Source of the DNA: Bacteroidales bacterium
GTDB lineage: Bacteria; Bacteroidota; Bacteroidia; Bacteroidales; UBA932
Assembly: GCA_024401715.1 (NCBI GenBank)
Contig: JAKSKO010000001.1
Span: forward strand, 6,891-70,890
Length of the DNA: 64,000 bases
Direction: 5' to 3'
Shown piece by piece: positions 1,991 to 11,513 of this stretch. Position 1 is the first letter of the stretch, and every line of letters starts with the position of its first letter. Position numbers and translations under genes: made by a program. The notes beneath the pieces are model-generated. The model was not told where the DNA came from and made no database searches. It saw only the letters and a program-made list of their open reading frames with translations.

Positions 1991-3064
1991 CTAGATTTTA
2001 TGATCACAATATACGCAGCGGACAACGCCGTTCTCCTCGTGGAAAAGAGGGTCCACTTTCTCGTGTGTACTAATACATTTTACATTTGTGCAGCGCAGCT
2101 TTTCATCGCGGAAATACTCCGGATGCTCCGGCATGGCATGCTGTGGGTCGTCCTGCCACTGCAGCAGCAGATACTGAAGGGCCATGCGCACGAATTTGCC
2201 GTTCTCTGTCTGGCGGAAATACGCTGCGCGAGGGTCCGGATCCACATCGGTTGCAATCTCGTTCACGCGCGGAAGCGGATGGAGGACAGCCATAGTTGGT
2301 TTTGCCAGCTTCATCTTGGCTGCATCCAGCACGAAGCTGTCTTTCACGCGCTCGTACTCCTCTTCGTCCAGGAAACGCTCTCGCTGAACGCGTGTCATGT
2401 AAAGCACGTCAAGATCCCCTATCGCGTCTTCAAGATTGCGCACTTCCCTGTACGGGATGCCCAGTTTTTCGCACACATCGGTCTTGATGTAGCTTGGAAG
2501 CTTCAGTTCGTCCGGAGCGATGAGTACAACCTTCACGTCTTTGTAGCGGCTAAGCGCCTTGATGAGGCTGTGAACGGTGCGGCCGAATTTGAGGTCTCCG
2601 CAGAAACCGATGGTGATGCCGTCTATGTGGCCCAGCTCACGTGTGATGGTGAGAAGGTCTGTGAGTGTCTGTGTAGGGTGTGCGTGCGATCCGTCACCGG
2701 CGTTGATGATAGGGATGCGGCTGTGCATGGATGCAACCAGCGGCGCACCCTCAAGCGGATGGCGCATTGCAGCGATATCGGCAAAGTTCTCCACAACGCG
2801 TATGGTATCGGCCACGGTTTCGCCCTTGCTCACCGATGAACTTGCGGCATCGGAGAAGCCCAGAACGTTTCCGCCCAGTTCCATCATGGCCGCAGTGAAG
2901 CTGAGGCGTGTGCGTGTGGACGGCTCGTAGAAAAGGGTTGCCAGTTTGTGGAACTTAAGCACCTCGCGGTACTTTTCCCTGTTGTTTATGATTTCAAGGC
3001 CGAGAGCCACCACCTGGTCTAGCTCTTCCTTGGTGAAATCTGTAGGATCTATGAGATGTTTCAT
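1991..3064 (-). CDS. pyrB: Aspartate carbamoyltransferase catalytic chain with fused C-terminal PyrI-like Zn-binding domain
   Basis: [13 protein letters not shown] and HPLPR motifs. The C-terminal tail is CTNVKC-X19-CVYC. Confidence 0.93.
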
Positions 3065-3066
3065 TG

Positions 3067-3696
3067 CTATTTAATCCAGCTTTCGTCACTTGGGTTATTA
3101 CGGAACTGAATGATGCGCTCTTTCCACTCCGGAGCTATATAGCCCTCGGCTGCGGCAACCTCTACAAGTGCATCCAGGTTGCTTAGAGAATAGTTTACCA
3201 CATTTGCTGCAGCAAGTCTGTCAAGGCCTTTCTGCATGCCGTAGGTGAAGATGCTTACGATGCCAAGAACCTCGGCACCTGCCTCACGCAAAGCCTCAAC
3301 CACGTCGATGGCGCTGCCGCCGGTAGAGATGAGGTCTTCAATAACCACAACCTTTGTGCCCGGTTCCAGACGTCCCTCAATGCGGTTGTTGCGGCCGTGG
3401 CTCTTAGCCTCGCCACGAACATAACCCATTGGAAGGCCCATGATGGATGCTGCGATTGCAGCGTGGGCGATGCCTGCGGTGCTGGTTCCCATAAGGGCCT
3501 CGGCCTGCGGGAACTTTGCAGCAACGGTGTCGGCGATAGCCTGCTCCACAACCACGCGTGCCTGTGGTGCGGAAAGTATGAGGCGGTTGTCACAGTAGAT
3601 TGGGCTTTTGATACCGCTGGCCCAGGTGAACGGTTCTTCCGGACGCAGGAACACTGCCTTGATGTCCAGGAGCTGTTTTGCAATTATCTTTTCCAT
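3067..3696 (-). CDS. pyrE: Orotate phosphoribosyltransferase
   Basis: [16 protein letters not shown] and the PRPP-binding motif [12 protein letters not shown]. Confidence 0.95.
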
Positions 3697-3740: not shown

Positions 3741-4442
3741 TTAGCCGAGGAACTCTGCCACGCAGCGCTGGTATGCGGCAACAGGGTCTGCAGCGGCGGT
3801 AACCGGGCGGCCCACCACAATGAAATCACTGCCTATTTCGCGTGCTCGTGCAGGGGTTGTTATGCGCACCTGGTCATCGGCCGCAGCATCGGCGAAACGT
3901 ATGCCCGGAGTCACGGCAACAAAGTCCTTACCGCAGCGCTCCTTCACGATGGAAGCCTCCAGCGGAGAGCATACAACGCCGTCCAGGCCAGCCTCCTGCG
4001 CATTTGCAGCGTAGTGTGCGATAACATCGCCTATTGGCTCCTTAATGAGAAGGTCCTTCTCCATGCGCTCCTGCGAAGTTGAAGTGAGCTGGGTTACGGC
4101 AATCAGAAGCGGGCGTGAACCGTCCTCGCGGGTGAGGCCCTCCAGGGCTGCCTTCATCATCTCTATAGTGCCGGCAGCGTGAACGTTTGTCATATCCACA
4201 TCAAGGGCGGAAAGCACCTGCATGGTCTTGCGCACGGTGTTAGGGATATCGTGCAGCTTCAGATCCAGGAAGATCTTGTGGCCGCGTGCCTTTATCTCAC
4301 GCACGATCTGCGGGCCTGCCGCATAATAAAGTTCCATGCCAATTTTCACAAAAGGCTTGCGCGGACAAGCGGCGAACTTGTCCAGGAAAGAAAGCACCTG
4401 TTCTGCACTGCTGAAGTCGCAGGCAACAATCACATCTCTCAT
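3741..4442 (-). CDS. pyrF: Orotidine-5'-phosphate decarboxylase
   Basis: [20 protein letters not shown] and VVGRP motifs. Confidence 0.96.
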
Positions 4443-5353
4443 ACTGTAGCTATTATTTCGTTAAGACAGTTAATTTTCAATTTATCCATAAGAGCGGGAA
4501 GTTCCTCCACTATCTCTTTGCACACCATAGGGTTACGCAGATTTTCGGCTCCCACCTGCACGGCTGTTGCACCGGCCATCATCATCTCCACCACATCACG
4601 TGCCGATGACACTCCGCCGCAGCCCATCACAGGAATCTTCACGGCGTGAGCCACCTGATGCACCATCCTAAGGGCAAGAGGGAAAATGGCGCTGCCGCTG
4701 AAACCGCCGTAGGTATTGGCCACCACAGGTTTGCGGCGCTCTATGTCTATGCGCATGCCCAGCACCGTATTGATGAGGGTGAGACCGTCAGCGCCGGCCT
4801 TTTCGCAGGCAAGGGCAATCTCCACGATATTGCTTACGTTGGGGCTTAGCTTGATGAACACCGGTTTGGCGCCGCAAACAGCCTTCACCGCAGATGTAAC
4901 TTCCGCAGCAGCCTGTGCCGATGTGCCGAAGGCCATGCCGCCGCCGTGCACATTCGGGCAGGAGATGTTCACCTCTATAATGTCTATATCCGGGCAGGCA
5001 GCAGCCTTTGCGCAGCTCTGCACATATTCATCCACGCTGAATCCGCTTATGTTGGCGATGATGCAGCCGCCGTACACCTTGCGAAGGGCGGGAACCTTGT
5101 CTGCAACAAGCACATCCACGCCTGGGTTCTGCAGGCCCACCGCGTTTATCATGCCGCCCGGGCACTCTGCAATGCGCGGGCATTCGTTGCCATAGCGCGG
5201 CTCCAGGGTGCTACCCTTCAGGGAAATGCCGCCAAGGACGTTAAGATCGTACTCCCCCGCCATCTCTATTCCGAAGCCGAAGGTTCCGCTTGCCGGAACA
5301 ACCGGGTTTGCCAGCTTTACGCCGCAAAGCTCCACAGAAAGTCTGTTTACCAT
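4439..5353 (-). CDS. pyrD: Dihydroorotate dehydrogenase family 1B, catalytic subunit
   Basis: [33 protein letters not shown]. Start corrected to MVNRLSV at 5353, which overlaps the pyrK stop and has AAGGAGG 7 nt upstream. Confidence 0.93.
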
Positions 5354-6087
5354 ATCACTTCCTCCTTCTTGAATACCGGACCGTCGGCGCAGACGCGCTT
5401 GGCCCCGCTCTTTGTGTGGCAGGTGCAGCCATAGCATATGCCGCAGCCGCAGCCCATTCTCTCCTCCAGGCTAACTTCGCCCGGACAATCGGCCAGCATA
5501 TCGCACACGGCCTTCATCATAACCTTCGGGCCGCAGCTGTAGAAATAGTCGAACTGCGGGTTCTGCGCCTTGATGGCATCGGTTACCAGGCCCTTGAAAC
5601 CTGCGCTTCCGTCCATGGTGACCACGGTGACATCAGCGCCCAGGGCTTCATATTCGGCCTGCAGTATCACATCGGCAGCGGTGTTGAAGCCAAGATACAC
5701 CTTCACCTGTCTGCCTTTTGCCAGCAGTTCCTTCACAAGGCTGAAGCATGGCGAAGCGCCTATGCCGCCGCAAACCACAAGGGCCTTTGACGCAGGGGCC
5801 GACGCATCGAAACCGTTGCCCAGACCTGTGAGAACGTTTACGCCGGCACCCGGCTGCATTGCCGCCATCACCTCCGTTCCACGGCCTATAACCTTATAGA
5901 TGATGCTGAACTTCTCGCTATCCCATTCAGTAACGGCAAGAGGGCGGCGCAGATAGAAACCGTTCACGGCAACATCCGCGAACTGTCCTCCGCGTAAAAT
6001 GGCCGATGTATCGCCGACCAAAGTCATGCGATACACCCCATCTGCAATACGCCTGTTACTCTCAATTATGTAATCGGCTTTTTTCAT
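5347..6087 (-). CDS. pyrK: Dihydroorotate dehydrogenase electron transfer subunit
   Basis: LRRPLAV FAD motif, GGIGASP, YSCGP, and the [2Fe-2S] motif MGCGCGICYGC...RVCADGP. Confidence 0.94.
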   Translation of the reverse strand: MKKADYIIESNRRIADGVYRMTLVGDTSAILRGGQFADVAVNGFYLRRPLAVTEWDSEKFSIIYKVIGRGTEVMAAMQPGAGVNVLTGLGNGFDASAPASKALVVCGGIGASPCFSLVKELLAKGRQVKVYLGFNTAADVILQAEYEALGADVTVVTMDGSAGFKGLVTDAIKAQNPQFDYFYSCGPKVMMKAVCDMLADCPGEVSLEERMGCGCGICYGCTCHTKSGAKRVCADGPVFKKEEVIW

Positions 6088-9000
6088 CTATTTGTACTCC
6101 TCGTCGATTGTTGAAATGCCAAGGGTAATCTCCTCCAGGACGTCCAGCAGCACGCGCACCGTTTCAAGCGAAGTGAAGAGGGTTACGTTGTTTTCCACTG
6201 CCGCGCGGCGTATGTCATAGCCGTCCAGGCGGGTCTTGTGCTGGTTCACGTCTATGGTGTTTATCACATAGCTTACGTGTCCCTTGTGCATAGAGCGTAC
6301 AATGTCGTCGCTGCCCTCGCTTATCTTCTTCAGGGCGCGGGTGCGTATCCCATGCTCCTTCAGGAATTTCGCCGTTCCGGTGGTCGCCTCAATGTTGAAG
6401 CCCATATTGTAGAAGCGGCGCAGAAGCGGAAGTGCCTCCTCCTTGTCCCTGTCGGCGATGGTTGCGAATACTGTTCCGTAGCTCTTCACCGATACGCCCG
6501 ATGCCTGAAGGCTCTTGTACAGCGCACGGGTGAGTCTCTCGTCATAACCTATGGCCTCACCGGTAGATTTCATCTCAGGAGACAGATAGGTGTCTATGCC
6601 TTTGATTTTTGCGAAAGAGAATGCAGGGCTCTTCACATAGTAGCGCTTGCTCTCCGGATTTATGGTGTTTGTGATGCCCTGTTCCTTAAGGCTGTGTCCC
6701 AGCATTACCATTGTGGCAATCTTTGCCATAGGGATGCCTGTGGACTTGCTTAGGAAAGGAACGGTGCGTGAAGAGCGAGGGTTTACCTCAATCACGTATA
6801 CATCGTCGTTGTCGTCCACGATGAACTGGATATTGTAAAGGCCCACAATGCCAATCTCCTTGCCCAGACGTACTGTGTAGTCCACAATCTTATCCTTCAC
6901 TGCCTGTGAAAGGCTGAATGAAGGATATACGCTGATGGAGTCACCGCTGTGGATACCTGTCTTCTCCACGTGCTCCATGATGCCCGGGATGAATACGTTC
7001 TCGCCATCGCAGATGGCATCCACCTCGCTCTCCTTTCCGGAGATGTATTTGTCCACAAGCACAGGAGAGTTCTCGTTAACCTCCACTGCGTTGTGCAGAT
7101 AGTGGCGCAGGCTTTCCTCGTTGCCCACAATCATCATTGCACGGCCGCCAAGCACGAATGAAGGGCGCACCAGCACAGGGTATCCTATCTCTGCGGCAGC
7201 CTTAACGCCGTCCTCCACATTGGTAACGGCCTTCGCCTTAGGCTGAGGGATACCGGTCTTGCGCATGATGGCCTCGAACAGCTTGCGGTCCTCCGCATTG
7301 TCTATGGCCTGGATCTGTGTGCCTATGATCTTTATGCCGAACTGGGCCAGAGGACCTGCAAGGTTGATTGCGGTCTGGCCGCCAAGGGTTACTATGATGC
7401 CCTCCGGCTTCTCCAGGTCTATGACGTTCATCACATCCTCCACCGTGAGAGGCTCGAAGTAAAGCTTGTCGGAAATTGTGTAGTCCGTAGAAACTGTCTC
7501 AGGGTTGTTGTTGATGATGATGGCCTCGTAACCTGCCTCACGTATCGCCCAGATGGCGTGTACGGTAGAGTAGTCGAATTCCACACCCTGGCCAATGCGG
7601 ATAGGACCCGCACCCAGCACCAGAATCTTCTTGCGGCTGCTTACAACGGTCTCGTTCTCTGTCTCGTAGGTAGAGTAGTAATAAGGAACGTTGGCCTCGT
7701 GCTCTGCACCGCAGCAGTCTATGAACTTATATACAGGACGGATGTTCTGCGCCCAGCGGAACTCTATCATCTCCTTCTCCGTCTTGTCCCAGAGAGAGCC
7801 GATGAATTTGTCGCTGAAACCAAGTTTCTTCGCCTTCAGCAGAAGAGCGGCATCGCCGGGAGCGGCCTTCAGGGCATTCTCCATGCGCACGATGTTGCAG
7901 ATCTTCTCCAGGAACAGCATGTCTATCTTGGTGATATCATAGATGAGACGGATGTCCACGCCGTTGCGGATAAGCTGTGCGATTGCAATAAGATGGTCGT
8001 CCGGGAATTTGGCGATGTATTTGAAAAGGTCGGCATCGCTCATGCCCACGAACTTCTTCTTGTAGATGTGGCTTGCACCAATCTCCAGGCTTCGTATAGC
8101 TTTCAGAAGGCTCTCCTCCAGGGTGCGGCCTATGCTCATCACCTCGCCTGTGGCCTTCATCTGGGTGCCAAGCTCGTTGGCAGCCTCGGCAAACTTGTCG
8201 AACGGGAAGCGTGACACCTTGCTGACAACATAGTCGATAGTTGGCTCGCAGCATGCAGGGGCATCGGCAACCATAATCTCGTCAAGAGTGTAACCCATTG
8301 CTATCTTGGCAGTTACACGGGCAATAGGGAAACCGCTGGCCTTTGATGCAAGGGCCGATGAACGGCTTACGCGAGGGTTGATCTCAATGATATAGTATTT
8401 GAATGAAAGCGGGTCAAGGGCAAACTGCACGTTACATCCGCCTTCAATTTCCAGAGAGCGGATAAGCTTGAGGGCGCTGGCACGCAGTATCTCATACTCC
8501 TTGTCTGCAAGGGTCTGAACCGGAGCCACAACGATGGAGTCGCCGGTGTGAATGCCCACAGGGTCTACGTTTTCCATGGAACAGATACAGATTGCAGTAT
8601 CGTTCTTGTCTCGCATAACCTCGAACTCTATCTCCTTATAGCCTTTCACGCTCTTTTCGATAAGCACCTGATGCACAGGGCTCTGGGTGAGGGCGTTAGG
8701 CATAAGCTCCCTGAGTTCCTCCTCTGTGTTTGCAAAGCCGCCGCCTGTTCCGCCAAGGGTGAAGGCAGGACGAAGCACAACAGGATAGCCTATCTTGGCA
8801 GCCGTATTCACAGCCTCTTCAACACTGTAGCAGATGTCCGATGGGATAACCGGCTCTCCAAGCTCAAGGCAAAGCTCCTTGAACAGCTCCCTGTCCTCGG
8901 CTTTCTCTATGCTCTCGAAGGAAGTTCCCAGAATCTTCACGCCGCACTCGTCAAGCACGCCCTTGCGCGCAAGTTTCACGGCCATGTTAAGACCTGTCTG

Positions 9001-9276
9001 GCCGCCAAGGCCCGGAACTATCGCATCCGGACGCTCGTAACGGATGATCTTTGCTATATATTCAAGGTCCAGAGGCTCCATATAAACCTTGTCGGCCATA
9101 TGGGTGTCAGTCATGATAGTTGCAGGGTTGCTGTTTACAAGGATAACCTCGTAACCCTCCTCTTTGAGGGCAAGACAAGCCTGAGTACCTGCATAGTCGA
9201 ACTCTGCAGCCTGTCCGATAACGATAGGACCGCTGCCTATCACCATTACTTTTTTGATATCTGTTCTGCGTGGCAT
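6088..9276 (-). CDS. carB: Carbamoyl-phosphate synthase large subunit
   Basis: [21 protein letters not shown], two ATP-grasp halves ([22 protein letters not shown]) and a C-terminal MGS-like domain. Confidence 0.97.
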
Positions 9277-9279
9277 GGC

Positions 9280-10356
9280 TTAATCCTCCATCATTTTAAC
9301 GAATTTGTCGAAGAAATCGGTCTCGTCCGGTCCCGGGCCGCCCTCTGGGTAGAACTGCACTGCGTAAACCTTGTCTGCAGCGCACTCGATGCCCTCTACG
9401 GTATTGTCCGCAGCGTCCCAGTATGTAAGTTTGAGGCCTGCAGCAAGAGCCGATGCCTCTTCAACGGCATAGTTGTGGTTATGCTCGGCAGTGATGATGC
9501 GGGCGCTGTCCGCACTGCGAAGCGGGTGGCCGCCGTGGTGGCCGGCTTTCAGTTTGTAGAGTTTTGCACCATAGCTGAGAGCAATCAGAGCCATGCCCAG
9601 CGAGATGCCGAATACGGGAAGCTTGCCCTTCAGAGCGTTGATGACCTCAACTATCTCCGCTGCATTCTCCGGATTGCCCGGGCCGCTTGAAACAAGCACG
9701 CCGTCAGGGTTGAAGGCCAGGATCTCCTCTGCGGTGCTACCGGCAGGGACAACCGTAACGTTGCAGCCGCGGCGGTTAAGCTCTCCAACGATGCTGTGCT
9801 TAAGACCGCAGTCCAGCACAACAACGTCATGAACATGCTGCGGAGTGCGGCTGAACCAGCGTTTCTTGCAGCTTACGTGTTTCACGGCGTCCTTGTCCTC
9901 CTTGAAGGCTGCAATCATTTCAAGCGCCTTCTCCACCGGGGTCTCCTCCGGAACCAGGGCTGCAATCATATTGCCTTCGTCGCGGATGATGCGGGTGAGC
10001 ATGCGTGTGTCCACGCCCTCCAGGCAAGGAATCTTCTCGTCCTCCAGATACTCCGGAAGGGTTTTGGTATAACGGAAGTTGGAAGGGGTGTCGCAGCACT
10101 CGCGGACAATAAGGCCCGCAGGACCTGCTCCCTTGCTCTCGAAATCCTCGTCCATGATACCGTACTGTCCTATCAGAGGATAGGTCATCACAATGATCTG
10201 GCCGGCATATGCAGGGTCTGAAAGAACCTCCTGATAGCCCACCATTGATGTATTGAACACTAGCTCTCCGCACACGCAGACATCGGCACCGGCATTCATT
10301 CCGTGCATCTGACGTCCGTCGGGCAGAACAAGTTTAAGTCTCTTATCTACGCTCAT
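9280..10356 (-). CDS. carA: Carbamoyl-phosphate synthase small subunit with a degenerate glutaminase site
   Basis: N-terminal GELVFNTSMVGYQEVLSDPAYAGQI and VDTRMLTR are canonical. The catalytic motifs read GISLGMA (normally GICLGHQ) and QFYPE (normally QFHPE). Confidence 0.93.
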   Translation of the reverse strand: MSVDKRLKLVLPDGRQMHGMNAGADVCVCGELVFNTSMVGYQEVLSDPAYAGQIIVMTYPLIGQYGIMDEDFESKGAGPAGLIVRECCDTPSNFRYTKTLPEYLEDEKIPCLEGVDTRMLTRIIRDEGNMIAALVPEETPVEKALEMIAAFKEDKDAVKHVSCKKRWFSRTPQHVHDVVVLDCGLKHSIVGELNRRGCNVTVVPAGSTAEEILAFNPDGVLVSSGPGNPENAAEIVEVINALKGKLPVFGISLGMALIALSYGAKLYKLKAGHHGGHPLRSADSARIITAEHNHNYAVEEASALAAGLKLTYWDAADNTVEGIECAADKVYAVQFYPEGGPGPDETDFFDKFVKMMED

Positions 10357-10358
10357 AG

Positions 10359-11513
10359 CTATAGTTTGTATATTGTTTTTCCGTTTATTACAGTCTCAAC
10401 GCAGCGTCCGTACACCTGCCATCCGTCAAAAGGGGTGGCATGGCCGAGGGAGATGAACTCCCTGCTGTCTATGGTGTATGGGTTTTGTATGTCGAACACG
10501 GCGTAATCCACAAGTTCCTCTCCCCTGTAAGGTGAAGGAAGGTGGAAGCGGCGGCGCGGAGCAAGGCTCATAAGGTCTATAAGCTTGCCCAGCGGAATGA
10601 TATCCTTGCGGACGAAATGGGTATAAAGCAGCGGGAAGGCTGTCTCCAGGCCCACAATGCCCATTGCGCTTTTTTCCAGGCCCCTGGATTTCTCTTCGGC
10701 CGAATGCGGGGCGTGATCCGTGGCAATCATGTCTATGGTTCCGTCCAGTATGCCCTCTATCAGCGCCTGCCTGTCTTCGGCCGAACGCAGAGGCGGGTTC
10801 ATCTTGAAACGTCCGTCCTCCTGCAGGTCCCCGTCGCAAAGAAGAAGATAGTGCGGGCCGGTCTCGCAGGTGACATTCACTCCCCTGTCCTTTGCGCGGC
10901 GTATCACATCCACGCTCTCCCTGGTGGAAATATGACAAACGTGATATGCGCAGCCTGTCTCTCCGGCCAAACGCAGATCACGTTCTATCTGTCCCCATTC
11001 GCTCTCGCTGCATATGCCCTTGTGTCCGTGCAGGGCTGCATAGCGTCCGTCATGTATGTATCCGCCCTTCAAAAGGGAATTGTCCTCGCAGTGCGCGGCA
11101 AGAATGCATCCGTTGGCGGCCATCTCTTCCATCGCCTTGCGCATCATTTTTTCGTCCTGCACGCCGCTGCCGTCATCGGAAAAGGCCACAACCCTGTCTT
11201 TCAGCGCCGCAACATCCACAAGTTCCAGACCTTTCCTTCCGATGGTGATGCTTGCGTAGGGCCTTACGTCTATAACGGCGTCGCGCTTTATTATCTCTTC
11301 CTGAAGAGCCAGGTTTCCAAGGCTGTCCGGAACCGGATTCAGGTTCGGCATGGTGGCAACAATACCATAGCCCGATGCCGCCGCTGCGCGTGATCCGGTG
11401 GCAATCGTTTCCTTGTAGGAATAGCCCGGCTCACGGAAATGGACGTGCATATCAACAAAAGCGGGGCATGCCACATAGCCTGTCCCGTACCCGTATGAAT
11501 ATTCTTGCTTCAT
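10359..11513 (-). CDS. pyrC: Dihydroorotase (type I, short N-terminus)
   Basis: DMHVHFREPG, TMPN, HCED, YHVCHIS, FKMNPPLR, IATDHAPH. The metal-ligand motifs are present. Confidence 0.94.
   Translation of the reverse strand: MKQEYSYGYGTGYVACPAFVDMHVHFREPGYSYKETIATGSRAAAASGYGIVATMPNLNPVPDSLGNLALQEEIIKRDAVIDVRPYASITIGRKGLELVDVAALKDRVVAFSDDGSGVQDEKMMRKAMEEMAANGCILAAHCEDNSLLKGGYIHDGRYAALHGHKGICSESEWGQIERDLRLAGETGCAYHVCHISTRESVDVIRRAKDRGVNVTCETGPHYLLLCDGDLQEDGRFKMNPPLRSAEDRQALIEGILDGTIDMIATDHAPHSAEEKSRGLEKSAMGIVGLETAFPLLYTHFVRKDIIPLGKLIDLMSLAPRRRFHLPSPYRGEELVDYAVFDIQNPYTIDSREFISLGHATPFDGWQVYGRCVETVINGKTIYKL

Follow-up and report, generated by a model that had tools for sequence, protein, structure and literature searches.

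A pyrimidine-operon carbamoyl-phosphate synthase with a probable pseudo-glutaminase small subunit in a Bacteroidales bacterium

Introduction

What is the nitrogen donor of a carbamoyl-phosphate synthase (CPS) whose glutaminase site has been dismantled? The question is raised by a stretch of 64,000 nucleotides from a Bacteroidales bacterium (assembly GCA_024401715.1, contig JAKSKO010000001.1, positions 6,891 to 70,890; hereafter, the window), in which a full-length gene for the CPS small subunit, carA*, lies next to carB, the gene of the large subunit. Carbamoyl phosphate opens the pathways to pyrimidines and arginine. In the textbook view, CPS takes its nitrogen from glutamine in bacteria, and from ammonia only in the ureotelic CPS1. 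An original prediction from the sequence of the window took CarA* for a dead pseudo-enzyme and CarB for an enzyme working on free NH3. We find that carA* probably encodes the pseudo-glutaminase small subunit of a heterodimeric, ammonia-dependent CPS belonging to a pyrimidine (pyr) operon. This is supported by a ratio of non-synonymous to synonymous substitution rates (dN/dS) of 0.07, by a decay confined to the residues of the glutamine site, by the conservation of the ammonia tunnel and its gate, and by relatives in which such a pair is the sole CPS. The source genome is a metagenome-assembled genome (MAG) of 1.98 Mb, a draft in 79 contigs that is 90% complete.

Results

A full-length small subunit with a replaced glutaminase site

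The gene and the codons discussed below are the following, with residue numbers of the replaced positions taken from Escherichia coli CarA:

9280..10356, minus strand: carA*, full-length CPS small subunit with a dismantled glutaminase site, 358 amino acids
9601..9603, minus strand: codon 252 (TCG), Ser at the nucleophile Cys269; same codon in the independent contig L092
9349..9351, minus strand: codon 336 (TAC), Tyr at the triad residue His353, from the alignment to E. coli CarA
10210..10212, minus strand: codon 49 (GCA), Ala at Ser47, a residue invariant in 87 intact CarAs
9589..9594, minus strand: codons 255-256, Met-Ala at His272 and Gln273 (glutamine binding), from the alignment

The gene starts 2 nt past the stop codon of pyrC and stops 3 nt before the ATG of carB, in agreement with the original description of a full-length CarA with an intact open reading frame packed between these two genes. 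Its product has the CPSase_sm_chain (PF00988, 4.9e-47) and GATase (PF00117, 7.4e-39) domains of Pfam. It scores 374.2 bits with the CarA equivalog model TIGR01368 (cut-off of 307.35), and its best NCBIfam model is NF009475 (379.7 bits for a cut-off of 221). We built an AlphaFold model from an alignment of 56 members of the clade described below. Its mean predicted local distance difference test score (pLDDT) is 91.5 and its template modelling (TM) score to E. coli CarA (1cs0_B) is 0.93, so that the two-domain fold of CarA is predicted to be intact.

Residues were mapped by a phmmer alignment of CarA* to E. coli CarA (1bxr_B/1jdb). As aligned, both the Cys and the His of the triad are replaced, along with most of the glutamine-contacting residues. 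The catalytic triad Cys269-His353-Glu355 reads Ser252, Tyr336, and Glu338, the last being the only one retained. Asn240 is replaced by Ser, Gln310 by His, Gly313 by Asn, and Asn294 by His, and among the pocket residues Ser47, Gln273, Asn294, and His312 the latter alone is kept. At the level of motifs, SSGPGNP stands for SNGPGDP, HNHNY for QNHGF, and DPAY for DPSY. The oxyanion Gly (E. coli Gly241) is present. The top sequence match of CarA* in the PDB is 1c30 (1c30_B), an engineered C269S mutant of the E. coli enzyme. The alignment upholds the replacements that had been read from the sequence at Cys269 (TCG, Ser), His353 (TAC, Tyr), and Gln273 (Ala), as well as the SSGPGNP and HNHNY motifs, and adds to them the change of Ser47 to Ala49. 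The PurL of the same cluster was said to keep its Cys and His-x-Glu, and it does have GGICNGFQ and GHTE.

The replacements are genuine and the gene is under purifying selection

Two contigs that were assembled independently from other sequencing runs (L092 and L093, from Logan) have the identical TCG and TAC codons and encode a protein 97% identical to CarA* in amino acids. Since both share these codons, a sequencing error, already deemed unlikely in the original prediction, is ruled out.

The same prediction had proposed to compute dN/dS, and neutral decay of carA* is not seen. Between the window and L092, carA* has 34.5 synonymous vs 9.5 non-synonymous differences (dN/dS of 0.074), and the neighboring pyrC has a dN/dS of 0.034. 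In a second pair of orthologues (L043/L045), the values are 0.118 for carA* and 0.028 for carB. The comparison with L006, at 75% amino acid identity, was unusable because synonymous sites are saturated. Hence, carA* is under strong purifying selection, even if the constraint is two to four times weaker than on its neighbors.

A clade of small subunits with variable glutamine sites

To place CarA* among its relatives, we analyzed its 120 closest proteins out of 5.8 billion, which are 55-97% identical to it and include those of 'Bacteroidales bacterium' MAGs. All 120 are reading-frame-clean; 119 have 352-371 amino acids and one has 437. The position of the nucleophile is occupied by C, G, S, A, N, Q, or T, and that of His353 by Y (71 proteins), H, C, N, S, or T. 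In a count over 119 members of the clade, 87 carry Tyr336, and the Cys persists in 29 of these 87. The Cys nucleophile was lost at least 9 times within the clade. This pattern is consistent with an early inactivation by the replacement of His by Tyr followed by drift of a nucleophile that had become useless. The homologue search suggested in the original prediction thus returned comparable replacements of the glutamine site in more than 100 intact homologues.

We then compared 118 degenerate members of the clade with 87 CarAs having an intact triad. In the latter, Ser47, Cys269, His312, and His353 are invariant, and Gln273 and Asn294 are present in 86 of 87. The same six positions are variable in the degenerate members (entropy up to 3.0 bits), where the nucleophile is mainly G/C/S/N/A and the His site Y/C/H/N. 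Given their (near-)invariance in intact proteins, the pattern of replacement is far beyond chance. Other positions are spared: Gly241, Glu355, Pro358, Gly359, Ser35, and Gly292 are invariant or nearly so in the 118 degenerate members, 101 of which have Gly at position 293 (Gly276 in the window). CarA* itself retains the tunnel residues Ser35, Gly292, Gly293, Pro358, and Gly359. Within the degenerate clade, two sequences share on average 65.6% identity in the N-terminal domain, which docks to CarB, and 57.9% in the GATase domain, whereas intact CarAs of Bacteroidales have the opposite order, with 65.6% and 73.7%, respectively. The relaxation in the degenerate clade is confined to the GATase domain, and 84 alignment columns are at least 95% conserved across the clade.

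Degenerate pairs recur and can be the only CPS of a genome

We surveyed 151 genomes of the same family as the source genome. In three of them (G319, G305, and G343, 95-97% complete), the pyr-operon pair carA*-carB provides the only carA and carB. Six others (G227, G253, G231, G261, G346, and G304, 92-99% complete) have a single pair, of the purF-linked lineage, whose CarA is also degenerate. Its motifs are diverse (GVGIGN/NFTPD, GTGLGH/QFDSTIY, GIGLGN/QIAPE), and G304 keeps the Cys together with QFYPE. From their gene content, degenerate CarA-CarB pairs would suffice as the only CPS in these nine genomes (92-99% complete, in which an unassembled second copy is possible). Further degenerate CarAs of this lineage have Cys replaced by Gly (G238), His by Asn and Glu by Gln (G336), or, in four genomes of one genus, Ser47 by Asn and His by Tyr. 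Since degenerate pairs occur in both the pyr-operon and the purF-linked lineages of CarA, the glutaminase was lost repeatedly within one family.

In a wider survey, we took the 150 top-ranking representatives of clusters made at 50% identity from 1.84 billion proteins. The Cys-His-Glu triad is present in 85 of these and absent in about 60. In a FastTree phylogeny of 278 CarAs, the triad switches between intact and degenerate 27 times, or no fewer than 16 times when counting starred branches only. The degenerate CarAs with names include those of Alistipes (Ser, with His kept), Sporomusaceae (Gly, Leu, Glu), and Oscillospiraceae (Gly, Glu, Ile). The degenerate carA of Oscillospiraceae is directly upstream of a full-length carB. 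In Sporomusaceae the order is pyrB-pyrC-carA*-carB, where carB ends with the contig after 651 residues. The idea that degeneracy is unique to the carA* of the window was therefore rejected, as it also occurs in the purF-linked lineage of the family and in Firmicutes. Some public records of proteins lacking the triad, P0036, P0143, and P0382 among them and those of Sporomusaceae and Alistipes included, are labeled 'glutamine-hydrolyzing carbamoyl-phosphate synthase small subunit'. Such a label is probably mistaken for degenerate CarAs as a group.

Taken together, we lean towards the view that ammonia-dependent CPSs with a pseudo-glutaminase are common in anaerobic bacteria of the gut and rumen, with many independent origins, and are sometimes the only CPS.

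Two further observations were made during these surveys. In the Oscillospiraceae MAG (L095:10261-10986), the degenerate carA-carB is followed by a gene for a 241-amino-acid NAD_synthase (PF02540) without a separate glutaminase domain, which may be a second enzyme of the ammonia type in the same operon. Finally, about 89 of 201 Bacteroidales genomes (at least 90% complete, some larger than 5 Mb) gave no match to carA or carB, which reflects either a real absence or the sensitivity of the first-look filter.

The partner CarB and the pyr operon

The genes of the operon around carA* are the following:

6088..9276, minus strand: carB, large (synthetase) subunit, 1062 amino acids (TIGR01369, 1454 bits; NF003671, 1497 bits)
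10359..11513, minus strand: pyrC, dihydroorotase, first gene of the operon (TIGR00857, 371 bits)
5347..6087, minus strand: pyrK, electron-transfer subunit of dihydroorotate dehydrogenase (NF000799/NF000798)
4439..5353, minus strand: pyrD, dihydroorotate dehydrogenase (NF005574, 395 bits), with an inferred start codon in an open reading frame that reaches 5437
3741..4442, minus strand: pyrF (NF001273, 290 bits)
3067..3696, minus strand: pyrE (TIGR00336, 131 bits)
1991..3064, minus strand: pyrB, aspartate carbamoyltransferase, the consumer of carbamoyl phosphate (TIGR00670, 337 bits)

CarB is full length, its residues 1-1037 aligning to residues 1-1044 of E. coli CarB, and it keeps Cys232, Ala251, and Ala314, the residues named as the gate of the ammonia tunnel (PMC4655335). 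The adjacency of carA and carB is repeated in six other loci (L007, L008, L043, L045, L046, and L047), and CarA* is presumably in complex with CarB. Orthologous operons were found in Candidatus Cryptobacteroides MAGs and in a MAG of Bacteroidales from horse faeces, where CarB is 80-86% and CarA* 52-63% identical to the proteins of the window.

The operon reads pyrC-carA*-carB-pyrK-pyrD-pyrF-pyrE-pyrB, followed by putative purC and purB, named without a family search. Since it lies inside a complete pyr operon, the CPS of the window is dedicated, at least transcriptionally, to the synthesis of uridine monophosphate (UMP). The order pyrC-carA-carB-pyrK-pyrD-pyrF-pyrE is that of the pyr operon of Bacillus. 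A 'Firmicutes-like' origin of this CPS would have gene order as its sole basis; the nearest triad-intact relatives with names are from Bacteroidales MAGs ('Bacteroidales bacterium 55_9' and Prevotellaceae).

The PyrB of the operon (1991-3064, minus strand) has a C-terminal extension of about 55 residues with four Cys (…CTNVKC…CVYCDHKI) beyond the core of aspartate carbamoyltransferase, and its match to TIGR00670 is limited to residues 2-301.

A second, canonical CPS in an ammonium-assimilation context

The source genome has a second carA-carB pair, on contig C29, whose CarA has a canonical site (GICMGNQ, QNHGF, QFHPE, DPSY). Since a CPS of the glutamine type is also encoded, the organism is not restricted to ammonia, and in this respect the original prediction fails. 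That prediction had also stated what would speak against it, namely a carA* in neutral decay with another carA supplying the function: the other carA exists, and the neutral decay does not (dN/dS of 0.07-0.12). The second pair ends a run of eight genes for nitrogen assimilation and the use of glutamine, glnA-gltB-dapF-dapL-pyrG-purF-carA-carB (C29:3925-20030; L094 and L072), in which glnA encodes a protein of 726 amino acids with a weak match to GlnA, presumably of type III. Besides dapL and dapF, the genome encodes ddh, a meso-diaminopimelate dehydrogenase (C3:35240-36124, L111, 360 bits).

This arrangement recalls Bacteroides thetaiotaomicron, where dapLF and carAB belong to a 'high-affinity ammonium' locus that matters at low ammonium, and where Ddh and an orphan CarB, CarB2, matter at high ammonium, CarB2 being proposed to be an ammonium-dependent CPS (PMC8121099). 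With ddh beside dapL and dapF, the source genome has, as B. thetaiotaomicron does, both the ammonium-dependent and the ammonium-independent enzymes for precursors of lysine and peptidoglycan. By analogy, it appears to have a similar two-enzyme design, in which CarA*-CarB would take the place of CarB2 without being its orthologue. The orphan CarBs of other Bacteroidales families (L052-L067) have about 66% identity to the purF-linked CarB over its first 499 residues, vs about 39% in a full-length comparison with the window CarB. We therefore rejected the orthology of the window CarB with the orphan CarB2 of the Bacteroides type, the protein BT3866 itself not being among the sequences compared.

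Two other forms of CPS genes were noticed in Bacteroidales. A third lineage of CarB (L068-L071, in G162, G074, G006, and G116), 45-46% identical to the window CarB and without an adjacent carA, is the second CarB of these four genomes and differs from the orphan CarB2 type, which is more common. In five genomes (G001:C20, G138:C1, G157:C18, G277:C5, and G347:C3; L050 and L089), canonical carA and carB are fused in one frame of 1447-1488 amino acids, a natural single-chain CPS as in the eukaryotic enzymes.

Discussion

How CarA*-CarB may work

We propose that CarA*-CarB, unable to hydrolyze glutamine, would use free NH3, bicarbonate, and 2 ATP to make carbamoyl phosphate. The small subunit would be retained because this lineage of CarB needs it for folding, stability, or allostery. 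More speculatively, the emptied glutamine pocket might admit external ammonia to the ancestral tunnel, still open; this path is conceivable because the clade keeps Gly293, unlike CPS1. With ammonium in ample supply, as in the gut, the pair would provide for UMP synthesis, and the canonical CarAB of the glnA-gltB-dapF-dapL-pyrG-purF locus would take over when ammonium is scarce, a division of labor that parallels the one proposed for CarB2 and CarAB in B. thetaiotaomicron. There are precedents for both halves of the proposal: the inability of CPS1 to use glutamine is accepted to result from the replacement of its Cys by Ser (PMC4655335), and an isolated bacterial CarB is an ammonium-dependent CPS according to Trotta 1971, as quoted in PMC8121099.

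Several points weigh against this proposal. The use of ammonia by CarA*-CarB is inferred from the residues that were lost. E. coli CPS binds ammonia poorly, and the window CarB has no sequence sign of a better affinity. The CarB2 of Bacteroides apparently runs without a small subunit, which makes the retention of CarA* hard to account for. Furthermore, a small sub-clade within the clade (8 of 120) keeps Cys-His-Glu, so that not every member has lost the triad, and the ancestor may have been either intact or degenerate.

Other explanations

The idea that the replacements are an artefact of sequencing or assembly has a negligible probability: the source genome is indeed a 79-contig MAG at 90% completeness, but the two independent Logan assemblies have identical TCG and TAC codons, eight separate sites are altered, and like replacements are found in more than 100 homologues. 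It is also highly improbable that carA* is a dispensable duplicate undergoing neutral decay while the canonical carA supplies the glutaminase, possibly to the window CarB in trans. A supplier does exist in the pair on C29 (GICMGNQ, QNHGF, QFHPE), and CarA* is the faster-evolving subunit, its orthologues being 52-63% identical and those of its CarB 80-86%. Yet dN/dS stays between 0.07 and 0.12, and more than 100 homologues, some as distant as 55% identity, have remained intact at full length, with 84 columns conserved in at least 95% of them. Moreover, the pyr-operon pair is the only CPS in three genomes, and a degenerate CarA of the other lineage is the only one in six. Selection, conservation across the clade, and sole-copy genomes thus led us to reject carA* as a decaying pseudogene. 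As to the supply in trans, the window CarB is about 39% identical to the purF-linked CarBs of Bacteroidales and to the orphan paralogue, a distance that makes cross-pairing unlikely.

One might also ask if CarA* is still an amidotransferase, acting through Ser252 as nucleophile or by an unconventional mechanism, perhaps on an amide other than glutamine. Ser does serve as nucleophile in other hydrolase folds, and both Glu338 and the oxyanion Gly are retained. We regard this as very unlikely, since the general base His353 is a Tyr, the glutamine contacts Ser47 and Gln273 are gone, and proteins closely related to CarA* carry Gly, Ala, Asn, or Gln in place of the nucleophile, which is incompatible with hydrolysis; the role attributed to the Ser of CPS1 (PMC4655335) points the same way. 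A further consideration comes from crystallography. The E. coli C269S (1c30) and H353N (1a9x) variants were crystallized for their stalled hydrolysis. There is a small but real chance that the remodeled pocket has become a new, non-catalytic site for a regulatory ligand, with CarA* retained as a sensor and not as a scaffold or a port for ammonia, while CarB works on ammonia. A partly conserved new pocket, and not free drift at every site, is suggested by Tyr336 (87 of 119 members), His292 (88 of 118), and a Glu at E. coli position 309 (97 of 118), and E. coli C269S still binds glutamine, which alters the ATPase of CarB. On the other hand, the positions of the nucleophile and of Gln273 are highly variable (entropies of 2.2 and 3.0 bits), and there is no ligand that could be named. 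A pseudo-glutaminase subunit kept by an ammonia-dependent CarB remains our preferred explanation.

Relation to known systems

Mammalian CPS1 (5DOT/5DOU) has, like CarA*, a CarA-derived module in which the fold is kept and the nucleophile Cys is a Ser (Ser294 in CPS1). The CarA* model has a TM score of 0.88 to its N-terminal moiety, with a sequence E-value of 5e-56. However, CPS1 is one polypeptide of about 1500 residues that requires N-acetylglutamate, whereas here separate open reading frames encode 358 and 1062 amino acids, and CPS1 retains the His and Glu of the triad, whereas CarA* has lost the His too. In CPS1, the ancestral tunnel is blocked by Gln318 at the position of E. coli Gly293, and ammonia takes another path (PMC4655335); this block is not found in CarA*, which has Gly276 there. 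Judged by these comparisons, CarA* is of bacterial origin, independent of CPS1, and the likeness is only functional. The comparative evidence is in favor of the original reading of a dead CarA with a CarB likely working on free NH3, and its 'CPS1-like' label holds for function only.

Closer to the source genome, the CarB2 of B. thetaiotaomicron (BT3866) is, like the CPS of the window, a second CPS beside a canonical CarAB found in a locus with the glutamine synthetase/glutamate synthase (GS/GOGAT) and dapLF genes; its proposed role is the production of carbamoyl phosphate at high ammonium (Liu et al. 2021, PMC8121099), and ddh is present in both genomes. CarB2 has no small subunit, whereas the CPS of the window is of another lineage and keeps a dead one. 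The PyrAA/PyrAB of the Bacillus type share with the window the position of carA-carB between pyrC and pyrK-pyrD in one operon, but PyrAA is a working glutaminase and the triad of CarA* is broken. Finally, the E. coli CarA mutants C269S (1C30) and H353N (1A9X) are altered at the same two positions as CarA*. These are point mutants made in the laboratory in an otherwise intact glutamine site, whereas the changes of CarA* are natural and fixed, and come with the loss of Ser47, Gln273, and Asn240.

The principle of an ammonia-dependent CPS with a dead glutaminase is known from CPS1, and a bacterial ammonium-dependent CPS has already been proposed. In the literature searched, which left subscription journals mostly uncovered, we found no bacterial CarA without the triad and no CPS with a pseudo-glutaminase, only the CarB2 proposal and the work on CPS1. 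Hence, a heterodimeric bacterial CPS with a selected and recurrent pseudo-glutaminase subunit appears to be undescribed.

Implications

The only other exception to the use of glutamine that we found proposed for bacteria is the orphan CarB2 of B. thetaiotaomicron, a proposal based on fitness data. If ammonia-dependent CPSs are truly recurrent, this would overturn the notion that all bacterial CPSs are glutamine-dependent, and the public annotation as glutamine-hydrolyzing small subunit would be systematically wrong for this group, an error that carries over into the metabolic models built for gut microbes. Natural intermediates are available to follow the loss of function, from proteins that keep the Cys with His replaced by Tyr to those where the Cys has become Gly, Ser, Ala, or Asn. 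The locus opens the questions of the role of the small subunit beyond the production of ammonia, of the path of external ammonia to the site of CarB, and of how gut anaerobes split nitrogen assimilation between ammonium-rich and ammonium-poor states. The locus would represent a second, independent route to an ammonia-dependent CPS, one in which the small subunit has been preserved as a pseudo-enzyme.

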